Shown piece by piece: positions 22,341 through 44,074 of a stretch of DNA of 64,000 nucleotides; the stretch's first letter is position 1, and every line of letters starts with the position of its first letter. The notes under the pieces were generated by a model. The model saw only the letters and a list, made by a program, of their open reading frames with translations. It made no database searches and had not been told where the DNA came from. The stretch spans positions 128,001 through 192,000 of the forward strand of contig CAWFXA010000003.1 of assembly GCA_963819655.1 (NCBI GenBank). The letters run 5' to 3'. The position numbers and the translations under genes are program-made. The DNA comes from an uncultured Chloroflexia bacterium (GTDB lineage Bacteria; Chloroflexota; Limnocylindria; Limnocylindrales; CSP1-4).

Positions 22341-23503
22341 CTGCGACCGTCGTGCCCGCGCTCAGCGACGAGGAGCGGCTGCTCCAGTCGACGGCTCGCG
22401 AGTTCGCCGTTCGTGAGGTCGCGCCCGGGGCGATCGAGCGCGACGGGGCGGAGCGCTACGACCGGGCGCTGTTTACAGCGATGGGCACGCTCGGGCTGAC
22501 CGCGGCGCCGTTCCCGACAGACGTCGGCGGTGCCGGGTTCTCGTATCGCGCCTGGACGCTGGTCATGGAGGAGATGGGGGCGGCCGACATGTCGATGGCG
22601 GTGTCGCTGTCGGTGCACATCCTGTCGCAGTACCCGGTCGTGACCTGGGGCACCGACGAGCAGAAGGACCGGTGGCTGCCGGCGATGCAGTCGGGCGAGG
22701 CGCTCGGCGCGTTCGCCTTGACCGAGCCGCATGCCGGGTCGGACGCGTCGGCGATCCGGACGCGGGCGGAACGGACCGATGATGGCGGCTATCGGCTGAC
22801 CGGTACCAAGATCTGGATCTCCAACGCACCGGAGGCGGAGCGCTATCTGGTGTTCGCGACCGTCGACCCGGAGGCCGGCTCCGGTGGGATCACCGCGTTC
22901 CTGGTCGAGAAAGGGATGACCGGGTTTCGGTTCGGGGCGCACGAGCGGAAGATGGGGATCCGGGCGTGTCCGGCGGCCGAGCTCGTGTTCGAGGGCTGCG
23001 ACGTGCCGGCTGGGAACCGGCTCGGCGACGAAGGCGACGGCTACCGGATCGCGCTGTCGGCGCTTGGCGAGGGGCGGATCTCGATCGCGGCGGCGTGCGT
23101 GGGGCTGGCCCGTTCTGGGCTCGAGGCGGCGGCGCGGTACCTCGGAGAGCGGAAGGCCTTCGGCGGGCCGCTTGCCGAGCAGCAGGGGCTGCGCTTCATG
23201 CTGGCGGAGATGGCCCGGGACGTGGCGGGGGCGCGGGCACTCACCCGGGAAGCCGCCGCGGCCAAGGATCGCGGCGAGCCGCTCGCCGAGGTGTCGTCGC
23301 TGGCCAAATGGACCGCCTCCGATGTCGCGATGCGCGTCGCGACCGATGCGGTCCAGCTGTTCGGTGCCAGTGGGTACTCGCGCGAGACCGGCATCGAGCG
23401 CTTGATGCGCGACGCCAAGGGTGCCCAGATATACGAGGGCACGAACCAGATCCACCGCGAGATCGTGGCGGCCGAGGTGTTGAAACGAGCCGGGGTCGGC
23501 TGA
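22337..23503 (+). CDS. Short-chain acyl-CoA dehydrogenase
   Basis: FALTEP.AGSD, GTKIWISN, KMGIRA, IYEGTNQI. Confidence 0.92.
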   Translation: MTATVVPALSDEERLLQSTAREFAVREVAPGAIERDGAERYDRALFTAMGTLGLTAAPFPTDVGGAGFSYRAWTLVMEEMGAADMSMAVSLSVHILSQYPVVTWGTDEQKDRWLPAMQSGEALGAFALTEPHAGSDASAIRTRAERTDDGGYRLTGTKIWISNAPEAERYLVFATVDPEAGSGGITAFLVEKGMTGFRFGAHERKMGIRACPAAELVFEGCDVPAGNRLGDEGDGYRIALSALGEGRISIAAACVGLARSGLEAAARYLGERKAFGGPLAEQQGLRFMLAEMARDVAGARALTREAAAAKDRGEPLAEVSSLAKWTASDVAMRVATDAVQLFGASGYSRETGIERLMRDAKGAQIYEGTNQIHREIVAAEVLKRAGVG

Positions 23504-23543
23504 GTCGCAGCCGTCAGCCGGCCCCGAGCGCGCCGAGCCGCCA

Positions 23544-23701
23544 CCGTTGTGCCTTATCGCCACCACATGACGCTTCGGCACGATATCGACCGCCGAATGA
23601 GTCCGATCCCGGGACCTACATGCGTGGTCGCGGGGCCGCGACACGCTTGACCGGCGCGACACTGCGCCCAAGCGTCAAGACATGACGTTTTGGCAGGAAA
23701 C
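23544..23701. repeat. REPIN-like inverted pair of ~38-nt palindromes overlapping the nuclease gene 3' end
   Basis: Copy A 23544-23581 (..TGCCTTATCGCCA-CCACA-TGACGCTTCGGCAC); inverted copy B 23664-23701 (GCGCCCAAGCGTCA-AGACA-TGACGTTTTGGCAGGAAAC); both match the 40388-40565 element. Confidence 0.7.
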
Positions 23702-24347
23702 CAAGGGCGTCGACCCGCTCGAGCGGATCGCGCAGCCAGCGCTGCACACTCCGACCGTCGATCGGGAACTTGCGCCGGAGGACCGTCCCGTGCGCGGCGA
23801 CGGCCCGGCGGTTCGTTCGGCTGTCCGCGATGACGACCCAGGTGCTGACTGCGATGGGGTCCCAGCCCAGCCCGCGAGCGATGTTGCCCGCAAGGCGACG
23901 ACGCTGATCCATCTTTCCGAGCAACAGCCCGACCTCCACGACCTCGGTCTTGAGCTCGACGACGAGGAGCATCCGCCGGCCCGGGTGCCAGGCAAGGATG
24001 TCGATGATGCCGCGCTCACCGTGGATCGAGAACGACACCTCGGGTTCGATCACCCAGCCTTCGGTCGACGCAAAGAGCCCGGCGACAGCCTCGTGCATAG
24101 CGGCATGGCGTGCGTCGAGCAGTCGCGGAAGGTCCGCGCCATCCCACCGCACGAACACCTCGAGGCGCGCGCCGAGCGTGCTCGCCACCCGTCGGAGCTT
24201 GCCGAGCGGCACGGATGCGGCGCCGCCCCGTTCGATGCGGCCGATCACGGGCGGCGACACCCGAGCGCGCCGAGCGAGATCTACCTGCCGCCATCCCTTC
24301 CGGGTCCGGATCGCGCGGAGCGCGGCACCGATCCGCTGATCTTCCAT
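23616..24347 (-). CDS. XRE-family HTH fused to PD-(D/E)XK nuclease-like domain
   Basis: LRAIRTRKGWRQVDLARRARVS...IGRIERG HTH; EVSFSIHGERGIIDILAW...LVVELKT (E..D..ExK); CATCCT -10 6 nt before ATG 24347. Confidence 0.8.
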   Translation of the reverse strand: MEDQRIGAALRAIRTRKGWRQVDLARRARVSPPVIGRIERGGAASVPLGKLRRVASTLGARLEVFVRWDGADLPRLLDARHAAMHEAVAGLFASTEGWVIEPEVSFSIHGERGIIDILAWHPGRRMLLVVELKTEVVEVGLLLGKMDQRRRLAGNIARGLGWDPIAVSTWVVIADSRTNRRAVAAHGTVLRRKFPIDGRSVQRWLRDPLERVDALGFLPKRHVLTLGRSVAPVKRVAAPRPRM

Positions 24348-24412
24348 CCAGGCAGGATGGAGACACGCCCTTATCTGCGGCTTATCACAGGGCTCCGGCG
24401 TAGAATCGGGCC

Positions 24413-25642
24413 ATGCACGTCCCCAACGGTCAGACATTCATCGTGAGCGCCGCGCGAACGCCGATCGGCAAGTTCGCCGGGGCACTGTCAGCGGTGCCTG
24501 CGACGACGCTTGGCGGCGTCGCGATCCGGGCAGCCGTCGAGCGGGCCGGCCTCGATCCTGCGACCGTCCAGGTCGACGACGTGCTGATGGGCCAGGTCCT
24601 GCAGGCCGGTTCGGGACAAGCGCCCGCGCGCCAGGCCGCACTCAAGGCCGGCCTGCCCGACACCACCAGCGCCACGACGATCAACCGGGTCTGCGGTTCG
24701 GGACTGAAGTCGATCATGCTTGCCGCCGCGGAGATCCGAGCCGGAGACGCGGAGATCGTGGTCGCGGGCGGCATGGAGTCGATGAACGGGGCGCCCTACC
24801 TCCTGCCCGGCGCGCGTTTCGGGCTCCGGCTCGGCAACGCCGAATTGATCGATTCGACCGTCGCCGACGGCCTCTGGTGTTCGATCGAGGACTGCCACAT
24901 GGGCACTCACGCCGAACGGGTCGCCATCAAGGACCACGTGAGCCGCGAGGACCAGGACGCTTTCGCGCTCGCCAGCCACCAGAAGGCGATCGCGGCGATC
25001 GATGCGGGCCGCTTCGAGGCCGAGCTGGCGCCGGTCGTTATCACGGACGCCAAGGGTCGCGAGACCGTCGTCACCGAGGACGAGAACCCGCGCCGCGACA
25101 CGAGCGCCGAGGCCCTCGCGAGGCTCAAGCCGGCGTTCGCGCTGCCCGAGGGCGAGGACCGCGGCGATGCCACGACCGGCACCGTCACTGCCGGGAACGC
25201 GCCCGGGATCACCGATGGCGCGGCCGCGACCGTTGTTGCCAGCGAGCGAGCGGTCGAGCGCCTCGGGTTGAACCCGCTGGCTCGGATCGTCGGCTACGCC
25301 CAGGCCGAGGTGGCGCCGAAATGGCTTTTCCTCGCCCCGGTCGAGGGCGTGAAGCGGCTCCTCGACCGCATCGAGCTGCCGATCGAGGCCTTTGACCTCA
25401 TCGAGATCAACGAGGCGTTCGCTGCGCAGACGCTGGCGGACGGCCGTGAGCTCGGCTTCGACTGGGACAAGGTCAACGTCAACGGTGGTGCGATCGCGCT
25501 CGGCCATCCGATCGGGGCAAGCGGCGCCCGGATCGTGGCCACGCTGCTCCACGAGCTCCAGCGACGAGAGGGCCGGTACGGCCTCGCGACCCTGTGCCTC
25601 GGCGGCGGAGGGTCCGTCGCGATGGCGGTGGAGCGGGTCTGA
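24413..25642 (+). CDS. Acetyl-CoA C-acetyltransferase (thiolase)
   Basis: NRVCGSG, EINEAFA, NGGAIALGHPIGASG, LCLGGG. Confidence 0.94.
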   Translation: MHVPNGQTFIVSAARTPIGKFAGALSAVPATTLGGVAIRAAVERAGLDPATVQVDDVLMGQVLQAGSGQAPARQAALKAGLPDTTSATTINRVCGSGLKSIMLAAAEIRAGDAEIVVAGGMESMNGAPYLLPGARFGLRLGNAELIDSTVADGLWCSIEDCHMGTHAERVAIKDHVSREDQDAFALASHQKAIAAIDAGRFEAELAPVVITDAKGRETVVTEDENPRRDTSAEALARLKPAFALPEGEDRGDATTGTVTAGNAPGITDGAAATVVASERAVERLGLNPLARIVGYAQAEVAPKWLFLAPVEGVKRLLDRIELPIEAFDLIEINEAFAAQTLADGRELGFDWDKVNVNGGAIALGHPIGASGARIVATLLHELQRREGRYGLATLCLGGGGSVAMAVERV

Positions 25643-39229: not shown

Positions 39230-40381
39230 GTGATCGCTCCACCACCGCCCCGGGCAAGCTCGGTCGTGGACCCGAGGATCGGTGATCTCGGGCCGGCAGT
39301 CCTGGCACTGGAGGACGGAACGGTGTTCCCGGGCGTGGCGTTCGGGGCGCCGATCGCGGCGGGCGGCGATCTCGTCGTCAATACGAGCCAGACCGGCTAC
39401 CAGGAGGTCTGCACCGACCCGTCGTACGCCGGCCAGGTCGTCGTCATGACCTATCCGCTCATCGGCAACTACGGCCGGCTGGCCGACGACGACCAGTCCG
39501 TCAAGCCCTGGTTACGGGCGCTCGTCGTTGCCAACGCCACCGCGGCCGTTCTGGAGGACGCTCGTCAGCTCGCGGCTCTCCTCCGCGACGAGCGCATCCC
39601 GGCGATCGCGGGTGTCGATACCCGTGCGCTTGCCCGTCACCTGCGCGCCAACGGCAGTCTGCGCGGGATCGTCACGGCACCGAGCGAGGTGGACACCGCA
39701 GGTGCCGTGCTCGCCGCGCGGGCCGTGGCGCGCTGGGAGGACCAGGATTTCGTGGGCCAGGTCTCGCCGACCGCGATCACCGAAGTCGGCTCGGTGGACG
39801 ACGGCGGTCCACTCATCGGCATCGTCGATCTCGGCCTCAAGTCGAACATCGTTCGGGCGATGCGCCATCGCGGGGCGCGCGCGCGCGTGTTCCCGCATAC
39901 GGTCGAGGCGTCGGATGTGCTCTCGTCCGACATCGACGGGATCATCCTGTCGCCCGGTCCTGGGGATCCCGCGCGGCTTGCATCGCAGGTGGCGCTGGCG
40001 CGCGCAGTCATCGACGACGGCCGGCCGCTGCTCGGGATCTGTCTCGGACACCAGATCGTGGGGCGGGCTGCGGGCGCGGATACCCGGCGCCTGCGGTTCG
40101 GGCATCACGGGGCGAACCATCCGGTCCAGGACTCGGACCTTGGGCTCGTCCAGGTGACCGCCCAGAACCACGAGGTCCAGGTGGTCGGCGACTCGCTGCC
40201 GTCGACGTCGGGCTTCCACGTCAGCCAGGTGAACCTCAACGACCTGTCGGTCGAGGGGCTGCGCCACGGCGAGAAGCCGATCGAGACGGTCCAGTACCAC
40301 CCGGAGGGGGCACCGGGGCCACTGGACGCCCTCGCCGTGTTCGACCGCTTCGTGGCCGCGGCGCGGGGCGGGGTCGCGTGA
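39230..40381 (+). CDS. carA: Carbamoyl-phosphate synthase small subunit
   Basis: LALEDG, TGYQE..TDPSY.GQ, LSPGPGDP, GICLGHQ, FGHHGANHPV, QYHPEG. Confidence 0.96.
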   Translation: MIAPPPPRASSVVDPRIGDLGPAVLALEDGTVFPGVAFGAPIAAGGDLVVNTSQTGYQEVCTDPSYAGQVVVMTYPLIGNYGRLADDDQSVKPWLRALVVANATAAVLEDARQLAALLRDERIPAIAGVDTRALARHLRANGSLRGIVTAPSEVDTAGAVLAARAVARWEDQDFVGQVSPTAITEVGSVDDGGPLIGIVDLGLKSNIVRAMRHRGARARVFPHTVEASDVLSSDIDGIILSPGPGDPARLASQVALARAVIDDGRPLLGICLGHQIVGRAAGADTRRLRFGHHGANHPVQDSDLGLVQVTAQNHEVQVVGDSLPSTSGFHVSQVNLNDLSVEGLRHGEKPIETVQYHPEGAPGPLDALAVFDRFVAAARGGVA

Positions 40382-40387
40382 TGGCGT

Positions 40388-40565
40388 GTTTCCTGCCAAA
40401 TCGTCGCCACATGACCCTTGGGCGCGCTGCCGGCCGTTCGATGCCGGCTGGCGGAGTTGGTCCGTGCGGGGCAGAGATGCCCAGCGCGCCGGGAGGGCGT
40501 CAAATCCGAGCCGAAGGGCGCCAGATCCATGCGCAGGCGTCACTCCGTGACGATTTGGCAGGAAA
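40388..40565. mobile_element. Non-autonomous REPIN/MITE-like element between carA and carB
   Basis: Perfect 17-bp TIR TTTCCTGCCAAATCGTC (40389-40405) / GACGATTTGGCAGGAAA (40549-40565); each end is a CGTCR-N5-TGAC hairpin; flanks TGGCGTG/TGGCGCG. Confidence 0.7.
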
Positions 40566-40653
40566 TGGCGCGGGCCGACGGTGACGAAGCCGGCCATCTT
40601 CCTTGCAGGCGCTTTGAACCTTGCCGGCTGTGATCGAGCAGACGCGGTGGACT

Positions 40654-43600
40654 ATGCCGGCCGCTACTAAGCCGACGTCGGTGCTGATCCTCGGCAGCGG
40701 GCCCGTCGTCATCGGCCAGGCGGCGGAGTTCGACTATGCCGGCACGCAGGCCTGTCGCGCGCTGCGGGCGGAGGGTGTGCGCACGATCCTCGTCAACTCG
40801 AACCCGGCCACGATCATGACCGACCCCCAGGTCGCCGACGTCATCTACCTCGAGCCGCTGACGGTCGAGGCGGTCGAGGCGGTCATCGCCCGCGAGCGAC
40901 CCGACGGGGTCCTCGCGGGCCTTGGCGGCCAGACCGCCCTCAACCTGGCCATGGCGCTGGCGGAAGCCGGCGCCTTCGAGCGCTACGACGTCCGGCTCCT
41001 CGGGACGCCGCTCGAGGCCATCCGCATGGCCGAAGATCGCGAGGCGTTCCGCGACCTGCTCGACCGGATCGGCCAGCCGTATGCCCCGTCGTGGATCGTG
41101 GAGACGCCCGACGATGTCGAAACGGCCCTCCGAGAGATCGGGCTCCCGGCGATCGTGCGACCGGCGTTCACCCTCGGCGGGACCGGTGGCGGCATCGTCG
41201 AGACCGAGGCGGCCTACCGCGAACGCATCCGGGCCGGCCTGCGCGCGAGCCCCATCGGCCAGGTCATGGTCGAGCGCTGCCTCGTCGGTTGGCAGGAGAT
41301 CGAATACGAGGTCATGCGCGACGCCGACGACACGTGCATCGCCGTGTGCTCGATGGAGAACGTCGACCCGCTCGGCGTCCACACCGGCGATTCGATCGTC
41401 GTCGCGCCGGTCCAGACACTGACCGACGCCGTCCACCAGCGTCTCCGCAGCGCGGCGCTCGCGATCATCCGGGCGCTTGGCGTCGAGGGCGGCTGCAACG
41501 TCCAGTTCGCTCTCTCGCCCGACTCCACCGAGTACGCGGTCATCGAGGTCAACCCGCGCGTCTCGCGCTCCAGCGCGCTGGCGAGCAAGGCCACGGGCTA
41601 CCCGATCGCCCGGGTCGCGGCGCAGATCGCGGTCGGGCGGCGGCTCGCCGAGATCCCGAATGTCGTGACCGGCACGACGGTGGCCGCGTTCGAGCCGGCT
41701 CTCGACTACCTCGTCGTCAAGCTGCCACGCTTCCCGTTCGACAAGTTCCCGACCGCCGACCGCACGCTCGGCAGCCAGATGAAGGCCACGGGCGAAGTGA
41801 TGGCGATCGACCGCACGTTCGGCTCGGCGCTCAACAAGGCGCTCCGCGGCCTGGAGCAGGCCGGCGCCGGGCCGCTGGCCGAGGATCCGTCGTGGACGCC
41901 GGCGTTCGACTACCTGGCCGGGGTCTACGCCGGCGATCCCGACGAGGACGAGCCGATCCGCTGGGTCGACGACGACCGGTCAGGCCTGCGAATCGACCCG
42001 ACACGCGCAGAGGACCGCCGCCCCGATCGTGCTGCGGCGCTTCCTCGAGCCGTCCGACTCGCGGCTCTGGCGGCTCCTCGGGCTGCTACGGCGAGGCGTC
42101 CCGGAGGCCGTGGTGGGCGAGGCGACGGGGATCTCGGCATGGTTCCTCGCCGAGATGGGCCGCAATGTCGCGCTCGAACGGGAGGTCACCGTCGTGGGAT
42201 CGCGCCTGGCCGACCCCGAGGACGGCGGAGCCGCAGAGCTGCTCGCCACCGCGAAGCGCGCCGGGTTCGGTGACAAGGAGCTCGCCGGACTGGCCGGCAC
42301 GAGCCCGGAGGCGCTGCGGGACGCCCGCCTCGCCCTCGGTATCGTGCCGGGCTACGCCATGGTCGACACGTGCGCCGCCGAATTCGCGGCCGAGACCCCC
42401 TACTTCTACGCGACCTACGCTGCAGCCGGCTCGGCGCCGGAGGCGCCACCGGTCGATCGACCCGCGGCGCTCGTGATCGGCAGCGGCCCGGTCCGGATCG
42501 GGCAGGGGATCGAGTTCGACTACTGCGCAGTGCAGGCCGCCGACACGCTCCGACGCAATGGCTGGCAGGCGGTGATGATCAACTCGAACCCGGAGACCGT
42601 GTCGACCGACTTCGACGCGTCGTCGCGCCTCTATTTCGAGCCGCTCGACCCGGAGAGCGTGCGCAGTGTCATCGACGCGGAGGGCGGGATCCCGGCCATG
42701 GTCGCGTTCGGGGGCCAGACCCCGCTCAACCTTGCCGCGCCGCTCGTGGCTGGTGGCGTGCAACTGCTCGGATCGGATCTCGAGGCCATCGACCAGGCCG
42801 AGGAACGCGTGCGCTTCGCGGCTCTGCTCGACCGCCTCGGCATCCCGCAGCCCGAGGGCGGGATGGCACACAGCATCGAGGAGGCGCTGACGCTGGCCGA
42901 GCGGATCGGCTTCCCGGTCATCGTCCGGCCATCGTTCGTGATCGGCGGCCTGGCGATCGACTTCTGCTATTCGACCGAGGACCTCGAGCGCCAGCTCGCG
43001 CTGGCCACGGTCGTCGACCCGGATCGACCCGTCCGCATCGATCGCTATCTCGAGGGCGTCGAGGTCGATGTCGATGCCGTCAGCGACGGCGTGCGGGTAC
43101 TGATCCCCGGATTGCTCGAGCACGTCGAGCGGGCTGGTGTGCACTCCGGCGACAGCGTCGGCGTCTTCCCCCCGCAGTTCGTCAGCGAGGGCGACCAGGA
43201 CCTCATCGTTGCGACGATGGAACGGGTCGTGCTCGCCCTGGGCGCGAAGGGGCTCGTCAACGCCCAATTCATCGTCCGCGACGACGGCGTCTACCTGATC
43301 GAGGTCAACCCGCGGGCGTCGCGCACCGTGCCCTTCATGTCGAAGGTGACCGGCGTCCCGATGGTCGAACTGGCCGTCCGGATCGCGCTCGGGGCGACGC
43401 TCCCGGATCTCGGCTGGGACGGCGGGCTGCTGCCGACGCCGTCGTTCGTGGCCGTCAAGGCGCCAGCGTTCTCGACCGCGAAGCTGCGAGGGGTCGACCC
43501 ATCGGTCGGTCCTGGCATGCAGTCGACCGGCGAAGTCATCGGCCTGCACGAGGATCCGCGCGTCGCGCTGGCAAAGGCCCTGCTCGGGGCGGCGCTCGTG

Positions 43601-44074
43601 CCGCCGCGCCCCGGCGAAGCAGGGGCTCTCGCCCTGTTGTCCATCGCCGATCGCGACAAGGCGCAGCTGGAGCGGCTCGCCGCCGGCCTGGCGAGGGCCG
43701 GGTATCGGCTTGCGGCGACCCCGGGCACACGCCGCCGGCTCGCGGCGGTCGGTTACGACGCCCGACCGGTGGCCAAGCTCGGCGAAGCGCCCGACGAATC
43801 GATCGGCGAGGTGCCGATCCTGGAGCTGATCGCGAGCGGCGAGGTGCGGCTCGTGGTCAACACCCCGACACCGCGTTCGGGCGCAGTCCGCGACGCAGCG
43901 GAGATCCGCCACGCGGCCACGGGCGAGGGGATCCTGTGCCTCACCGCCATCGAGACCGCGGTCGCCGCCGCGGAGGCGCTTGATCCTGAGGTCGCCGAGC
44001 GGCTCTCCAGCGTGCGTCCACTCGGCGAGTGGGTGCCGGAGCCGGGTCAGCCGCGGCTGGTCGCGACCGCCTGA
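40654..44074 (+). CDS. carB: Carbamoyl-phosphate synthase large subunit, +1 frameshift near 41965-41980
   Basis: [33 protein letters not shown] in one frame; [31 protein letters not shown] and MGS domain in the next frame. Confidence 0.92.

Follow-up and report, generated by a model that had tools for sequence, protein, structure and literature searches.

The 64,000-nucleotide stretch of an uncultured Chloroflexia bacterium analysed here (contig CAWFXA010000003.1, positions 128,001 to 192,000; hereafter the window) carries a small family of inverted, imperfectly palindromic repeat pairs, one of which is built into the 3' end of a gene whose product combines an XRE-type helix-turn-helix (HTH) domain with a PD-(D/E)XK-like nuclease-fold domain. 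These pairs show the anatomy of REPINs, the hairpin-forming doublets of repetitive extragenic palindromic (REP) sequences, without REPIN-like abundance. It is plausible, on circumstantial grounds, that the HTH-nuclease protein recognises the repeats as specific DNA sites, and we put this reading forward tentatively; the repeat pairs themselves are a real, moderately interesting curiosity. The initial annotation of the locus had proposed a REP-associated selfish or domesticated element whose cognate enzyme is the nuclease; the facts it stated all check out, and its interpretation is supported in part.

The repeat unit, or arm, is an imperfect palindrome of ~45 nt with a CGTCA-N5-TGACG core and a strongly conserved flank, TTTCCTGCCAAA. 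Arms are mostly arranged in inverted pairs with their TTTCCTGCC ends facing outward, and the pairs measure 153-177 nt from end to end. Pair 1 (23546-23703) comprises, in order, a coding inner arm, the remaining 15 codons of the HTH-nuclease gene with its stop codon, about 30 nt, and an outer arm. The in-gene arm (23657-23703, minus strand; nhmmer score 44.2 bits, E 1.1e-12) is read in frame as (G)FLPKRHVLTLGR(S), and the distal arm (23546-23589, plus strand; 39.1 bits, E 4.7e-11) lies inverted in the gap that separates the stop codon from the acyl-CoA dehydrogenase gene; in the predicted fold the two arms are base-paired with each other. The straddling of the gene's 3' end by two arms, which had been remarked on from the outset, is thus a matter of physical construction; it is also conserved at an orthologous locus, and the arm inside the gene is marked by rare codons (see below). 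Pair 2 (40389-40565, 177 nt) is gene-free and occupies the 272-nt spacer that extends from the carA stop at 40381 to the carB start at 40654, an unusually long spacer. Its left arm (40387-40433, plus strand; 42.9 bits) had been recognised as a gene-free copy, which is correct, but it is not solitary: a third copy of the 17-mer TTTCCTGCCAAAWCGTC at 40549-40565 on the minus strand completes the inverted pair and identifies the right arm (40521-40570, minus strand; 40.5 bits) that had been missed. Together the two arms form a 35-nt inverted repeat with 77% complementarity, in which the outer 17 nt are perfect. The 17-mer is identical in both arms of pair 2 (40389-40405 and 40549-40565) and matches at 16 of 17 positions in the in-gene arm (23684-23700). 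The similarities that first drew attention to the repeats were all recovered, namely the in-frame copy, the identity of 31 out of 38 positions between the reverse complement of 23664-23701 and 40388-40425, and the shared segment CCACATGAC, which occurs in the window at 23563 and 40407 only. An open reading frame (ORF) of 68 codons (40381-40587, plus strand), the ATG of which overlaps the carA stop codon (TGATG), spans the gene-free pair and would read its left arm as CFLPNRRHMTLGR; it is probably not coding, since the G+C content at its third codon positions is only ~63% (counted by hand).

The window and the genome related to it may be error-prone assemblies, carB being frameshifted, and one might on this ground dismiss the arms as a chance resemblance or an assembly artefact with no repeat family behind it. 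This reading is refuted by the statistics of the repeats. With up to three mismatches allowed, the 17-mer has three matches in the window as against 0.07 expected, a number reached in none of 100 shuffles; nine arms (those of the window together with those of the loci L001 and L002 described below) are recovered with a single hidden Markov model at E <= 4.7e-11, with nothing further in 88 kb and no addition to the four arms of the 64-kb window; and the same arrangement recurs in an independently assembled genome. We accordingly regard chance or artefact as vanishingly improbable, and the proposal of a genuine repeat family with REPIN-like anatomy (inverted arms, an unconserved spacer and a long hairpin) stands.

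A pattern of 19 specified bases, which fits five of the nine known arms, was scanned against 185,579 species genomes and pointed to three loci, when about four chance matches would be expected by our own uniform-composition estimate. Two are true matches, both from one Chloroflexia metagenome-assembled genome (MAG); the third (L003, from a member of the Acidobacteriota) was rejected as a chance match inside the coding region of an MFS-type transporter, the latter being read from the sequence and not from a family scan. L002 is the syntenic orthologous locus, 84-96% identical to the window and containing the same gene, and its arms match their counterparts in the window at 91% identity (in-gene arm) and 81% identity (distal arm, d1). 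The same MAG supplies L001, where a gene-free pair follows a MerR-GAF-GGDEF gene on its downstream side and the vicinity contains no homologue of the nuclease; one of the two known arm loci in each genome is thus the HTH-nuclease gene. Two pattern matches in the related MAG, considered along with the fraction of arms that fit the pattern, imply a handful of arms per genome. The arm family is therefore very low in copy number and not a high-copy REP family, and the earlier suggestion of a spreading REP/REPIN family fails on the four arms of the window and the two exact-pattern matches in the whole of the related MAG. The HTH-nuclease gene itself is conserved, single-copy, chromosomal and syntenic, and is not mobile, as its synteny with the neighbouring genes is kept in both genomes. 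No sequence match to its product was obtained in 72,556 plasmid records or in phage collections; these results speak against the selfish gene that had been envisaged.

The orthologous locus differs in possessing, at 6348-6803 of L002, an extra gene for a 119-residue glyoxalase/VOC protein and an extra tandem arm (d2), both placed between the acyl-CoA dehydrogenase and HTH-nuclease genes. As the window retains ~30 nt resembling the 3' end of the VOC gene (23504-23546), a deletion adjoining the arms is likely. An integron-like cassette made up of the VOC gene and an arm was also considered and set aside: it would be a single case, no recombinase is found nearby, and the remnant suggests a plain deletion. 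An indel of this kind beside the arms, which removed the VOC gene along with one arm, and the occurrence of single and tandem arms (d2 and d1 in L002) would be natural if the arms were REP-like sequences or miniature inverted-repeat transposable elements (MITEs) whose copying or upkeep depends on an unlinked factor elsewhere in the genome, for example a RAYT, an insertion sequence (IS) transposase or host recombination. The HTH-nuclease gene would then be only the host or the source of the arms, and its product would be unconnected with them and might just be a regulator of the adjacent beta-oxidation genes. The gene body does lie outside the pair, not between its ends, and the gene is divergent from the thiolase gene in a fatty-acid cluster, in the manner of local regulators; against this, the arms are much scarcer than the members of REP or MITE families, and the 52 ORFs of the window that were scanned include no transposase, Y1/HUH/RAYT protein or IS. 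Likewise, no arm is covered among the 15 matches listed of the 47 to plasmid records, and the flanks, inspected by eye, do not reveal a consistent target-site duplication (L001 has CCGG on either side, pair 2 has TGGCG with a 2-nt offset, and the flanks of pair 1 do not match). We consider an unlinked factor a tentative explanation, about as likely as recognition of the arms by the HTH-nuclease protein.

Across loci, non-orthologous arms are 51-74% identical, whereas the spacers between them do not align, and the combination of an inverted pair, an unconserved spacer and a hairpin fold is seen at three independent loci, one of them orthologous in two genomes. Both pairs of the window are predicted to fold into one long hairpin each, far better than shuffled sequences (z = -3.3 for pair 1 and z = -4.4 for pair 2, with 0 of 200 shuffles of the latter equally stable). 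This stability, the position of all three loci either at the 3' end of a gene or between two genes of the same direction, and the stop codon enclosed by pair 1 could be taken to mean that the pairs act as RNA. They would be long hairpins, 3' of genes or between cistrons, that protect transcripts or end part of them, with no dedicated protein and no active mobility, much as the REPs of E. coli bring about transcript stabilisation or partial termination. The perfect 17-mer of the pair 2 arms, preserved at 16 of 17 positions in the in-gene arm, nevertheless exceeds structural need, and inspection by eye gives no sign that the mismatches between arms favour G-U on one strand. The pairs lack a T-run terminator, Rfam yields no match to them at the gathering score or at E <= 0.6, and the presence of identical sequence at unrelated loci would still need copying. 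An RNA-level role is hence rather unlikely in our estimate, and less likely than the two readings considered so far. Single arms fold weakly (z above -2 in seven of nine), and this, along with the conservation of the arms and not of the spacers, points to recognition of the sequence and not of structure alone.

The arm inside the HTH-nuclease gene coincides with the basic C-terminal tail of the protein (residues 218-243; 23619-23696, minus strand), which is predicted to be disordered from residue 222 (AlphaFold2 pLDDT < 50 for residues 222-243). In 120 homologues with at least 61% identity the tail follows the consensus FLPxRHxVxLGRxxAPV[KR]RV (one sequence with an aberrant tail, P0032, was excluded from the tail counts), and among representatives with less than 50% identity the strand that ends in FL and the terminal PV[KR]RV or RRVRR motif are kept in 123 of 150. 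Because the motifs on both sides of it are ancestral and the length of the tail is unchanged, the in-gene arm is native to an ancestral tail and is not an insertion; the same facts rule out a MITE insertion that replaced the C-terminus. An invertible C-terminal segment of the shufflon kind was likewise rejected, as the inverted frame (read by eye) loses the PV[KR]RV motif and the gene-free pairs have no gene to switch. Nor is the gene the cargo of an IS bounded by the arms, given that no arm lies upstream of it and both outward-facing ends of the pair are at its 3' end. The nucleotide sequence of the in-gene arm is odd for a coding region, being rich in codons that are rare within their synonymous sets (CCA 0.078, AAA 0.058, CGT 0.077, TTG 0.052 and CTT 0.04). 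Conditional on the peptide, codon rarity of this degree has P = 0.0019, and the arm ranks within the lowest 1.1% among 12442 windows of 12 codons, a sign of either nucleotide-level constraint or recent copying. That such codons are kept in a native, conserved tail is a further difficulty for the action of an unlinked factor.

The description of the protein as a fusion of an XRE-type HTH with a PD-(D/E)XK nuclease domain, encoded antisense between acyl-CoA dehydrogenase and thiolase genes, is borne out by the ORF, by Pfam, and by AlphaFold2 models searched with Foldseek. The gene (243 codons; 23616-24347, minus strand) runs from an ATG at 24345-24347 to a TAG at 23616-23618; the raw ORF call is longer (23616-24437), and the start at 24347 is preferred to that at 24437 because the homologues begin with MDDQRIG. 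The HTH domain (residues ~5-62; 24162-24335, minus strand) is recovered by the Pfam models HTH_31 (38.9 bits, cut-off 27) and HTH_3 (36.3 bits, cut-off 23) and is modelled with a pLDDT of 92-95; its nearest sequences in a PDB profile search are C.BclI, HigA2 and C.AhdI. The C-terminal domain (residues ~99-217; 23697-24053, minus strand; pLDDT 83) has no match to a curated family, the Pfam family YhcG_C coming up merely at E = 0.23 (11.7 bits, cut-off 32.5), and the significant matches from NCBIfam, PADLOC, PHROGs and the PDB profile search are to the HTH and not to this domain. Foldseek matches to its model are weak (best E-value 3.8e-3 against the PDB, with none at E <= 0.001, and two at E <= 0.001 in BFVD), and those with a name are mostly PD-(D/E)XK nucleases, including Card1, Can2, the R2 RLE, XisH, NucS/EndoMS, SduA and phage exonucleases. 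By modelled fold and motif only, the domain is assigned to the PD-(D/E)XK fold with an intact E...D...(D/E)xK catalytic signature (E103, D116, E131 and K133). These residues are invariant or nearly so in the 120 homologues and are retained in 146-148 of 150 distant representatives, and for this reason the family probably cuts nucleic acid. That the protein is not a RAYT, as first stated, holds in view of this architecture and of the window ORFs.

The family is sizeable: the 8000 candidates scored include 1383 homologues at E <= 0.001, and there are at least 645 clusters (at 50% identity) at E <= 1e-30, mostly from Chloroflexota; homologues whose source is named derive from MAGs of Chloroflexota or Limnocylindrales. 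The 19 longer representatives that were scanned contain no extra Pfam domains, no paralogue of the HTH-nuclease gene was found in the window, and the papers inspected among the hits of our literature searches contain no description of the family or of repeats tied to it. In many family representatives (P0133, P0146, P0151, P0156, P0178, P0180, P0181, P0186 and others) the profile match ends at about position 163-165 or splits in two, suggesting that frameshifts or truncations at one place are frequent in the metagenomic copies.

The features of the arms and of the protein can be brought together in a tentative scheme. We infer that it is the HTH-nuclease protein, and not another factor, that recognises the arms, and that it might bind, bridge and cut them. 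An HTH dimer would first settle on the CGTCA-N5-TGACG core and the flank TTTCCTGCCAAA; XRE-type dimers suit half-sites that are 10 bp apart, and the spacing of the half-sites in the core, together with an HTH that is closest to the controller proteins of restriction-modification (R-M) systems, lends support to recognition of this kind. Two arms could then be bridged, and the nuclease domain, with its catalytic residues intact, may nick or cut at or near them. The gene-free pairs, i.e. those in the carA-carB spacer and downstream of the GGDEF gene in the related MAG, would represent either rare seeded copies or additional targets.

Several considerations weigh against this scheme. The association between gene and arms amounts to one evolutionary event, seen at one orthologous locus in two related genomes, and the finding was chosen for its coincidence, so that a look-elsewhere effect applies. 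There is no arm in the promoter region of the HTH-nuclease gene itself, the usual position for autoregulation, and binding alone does not explain the arrival of identical arms at new loci. In the representatives with less than 50% identity, the linker in which the arm is encoded varies. Furthermore, base pairs in the stem of the arm join second codon positions at residues 219/227, 220/226, 221/225 and 222/224, and a hairpin conserved throughout the family appeared at first to be detectable at these positions: in the 120 homologues they are complementary in 82.5% of cells, which ranks 1 of 252 centres, and the complementarity of the pair 221/225 lies above all 5000 shuffles. Under phylogenetic control the covariation dwindles to 2-3 supported independent pairs (sign test p = 1). 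We therefore discard the family-wide hairpin and claim conservation of the palindrome for the two genomes only.

Comparison with known systems sharpens both the similarities and the differences. For REPIN-RAYT systems, Bertels & Rainey (PMC3337134) give a distance of 71 or 110 bp between the REPs of a pair, unconserved spacers, and a single-copy RAYT gene with REPINs on its flanks. The pairs described here are alike in consisting of inverted imperfect palindromes set ~70-110 bp from each other, in the poorly conserved spacer and in the hairpin formed by the whole unit, as well as in their physical link to a single-copy, vertically inherited gene; their inverted pairs, unconserved spacers, long hairpins and sites 3' of genes or within operons match REP doublets and REPINs (PMC3337134), which favours copying by an unlinked factor. 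They differ in numbering a handful of arms, where REPs reach tens to hundreds of copies per genome, in the type of protein encoded by the associated gene, which is an XRE-HTH with a PD-(D/E)XK domain instead of a HUH/Y1 transposase, and in the position of the pair, which overlaps the coding sequence at the 3' end of the gene only and does not flank the gene. Low abundance, the lack of a HUH or RAYT protein among the window ORFs, and arms that bear neither the GTAG nor the CGTC end tag place the pairs outside the REPIN-RAYT group, and the missing tags also tell against the arms being REPs that are served by an unlinked factor.

The GTAG and CGTC families surveyed by Di Nocera et al. (2013; PMC3733652) start with a terminal tetranucleotide that is followed by a stem of 8-9 bp and a loop of 4-5 nt. 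This survey records GTAG but not CGTC families in Chloroflexi and assigns no known dedicated transposase to the CGTC REPs. The arms resemble these REPs in being short palindromic repeats that form dimers and are at times found inside genes, and such intragenic REPs (PMC3733652) offer a precedent for an in-gene arm that is due to an unlinked factor. Unlike them, the arms terminate in TTTCCTGCC and carry CGTC inside the core of the stem and not at the end of the unit; they are also longer (~45 nt), fold weakly on their own and are low in copy number. Terminal inverted repeats (the 35-nt, 77% complementary arms of pair 2 with the perfect outer 17 nt), a length of 150-180 nt and an intergenic location recall MITEs. 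The internal sequence is not common to the copies as it would be in MITEs, which argues against an unlinked transposase; no consistent target-site duplication is seen by eye, and no parent IS is present in the window or in the plasmid matches listed.

Two further comparisons concern the protein. The MOB_C relaxases, exemplified by TraX of pAD1, are PD-(D/E)XK-type enzymes in a role that usually belongs to HUH enzymes, according to PMC6736028, and hence constitute a precedent for sequence-specific DNA processing by this fold in place of HUH. Membership of the HTH-nuclease protein in MOB_C is not supported, as it is much smaller, is encoded in a chromosomal housekeeping context and lacks any match in the plasmid records. 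The controller proteins of R-M systems and the small type II enzymes provide a second parallel, with an HTH nearest to C.BclI and C.AhdI, the linkage of an HTH to a restriction-fold domain, and palindromic sites. Unlike R-M systems, the locus has no methyltransferase (no Pfam match to such a family among the 52 window ORFs) and is bordered by the genes for acyl-CoA dehydrogenase and thiolase. The palindromic sites are rare as well as long, and the gene is syntenic, its surroundings in L002 differing only by the added VOC gene and arm.

The HTH-nuclease gene lies in a window of ~70% G+C, antisense within a beta-oxidation cluster in which the acyl-CoA dehydrogenase gene ends at 23503 and the thiolase gene starts at 24413. 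The 65-nt divergent promoter region between it and the thiolase gene contains a CTTATC-N5-CTTATC direct repeat (24370-24386, plus strand), which is identical at L002, where the whole upstream region is 92% identical; since it is kept there, it may be a true operator or promoter element, and is best regarded as a candidate operator or as -10 elements of the HTH gene. The CTTATC motifs at 24370, 24381 and 23553 make up three of the six occurrences in the window, both strands counted. The upstream repeats had been reported in the initial annotation and are indeed present; a link between them and the copy in the distal arm does not follow, for the latter is lineage-specific (AAATCG takes its place in the orthologous arm of L002), and the resemblance is probably coincidental. 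The heptamer GGCAGGA, found at 24348-24357 immediately ahead of the ATG of the HTH-nuclease gene and kept in L002, equals the outer 7 nt of the arms, possibly by chance. A TAGAAT located 6 nt ahead of the thiolase ATG, which L002 does not share, could serve a leaderless transcript as its -10 box. At the stop codon of the acyl-CoA dehydrogenase gene there is a 13-nt inverted repeat (23491-23526; 92% complementary, with a 10-nt loop), which is separate from the arms and may be that gene's own terminator hairpin. Finally, carB (40621-44074, plus strand) is split between two ORFs that overlap but differ in frame, the first from 40621 (ATG at 40654) to 42273 with CPSase_L_D1 and D2 and the second from 42029 to 44074 with D3, D1, D2 and MGS, and contains a frameshift or an assembly error between ~41650 and 42050.

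To our knowledge, REP/REPIN repeats have so far been tied to HUH tyrosine transposases, with a large class of CGTC-type REPs that has no known enzyme. A bolder extension of the present observations is that the HTH-nuclease family forms a second, non-HUH class of single-copy domesticated enzymes with REPIN-like pairs of their own, analogous to RAYTs and REPINs, in which the home copy of the arm would be written in the disordered tail of the gene and the protein would nick or cut arms and occasionally seed new pairs; we think this improbable. Should the link between gene and arms prove incidental, the pairs would still be new as a repeat family, though a small one, of an uncultured lineage, serving mainly as a marker of local rearrangement. 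If instead a restriction-fold HTH protein recognises its own pairs, this would amount to a second enzymatic route to REP/REPIN-like repeats and would assign a role to a large group of so far uncharacterised proteins of Chloroflexota. This would also mean that a DNA element and a protein tail are encoded in the same bases, with the choice of codons dictated by the DNA site.

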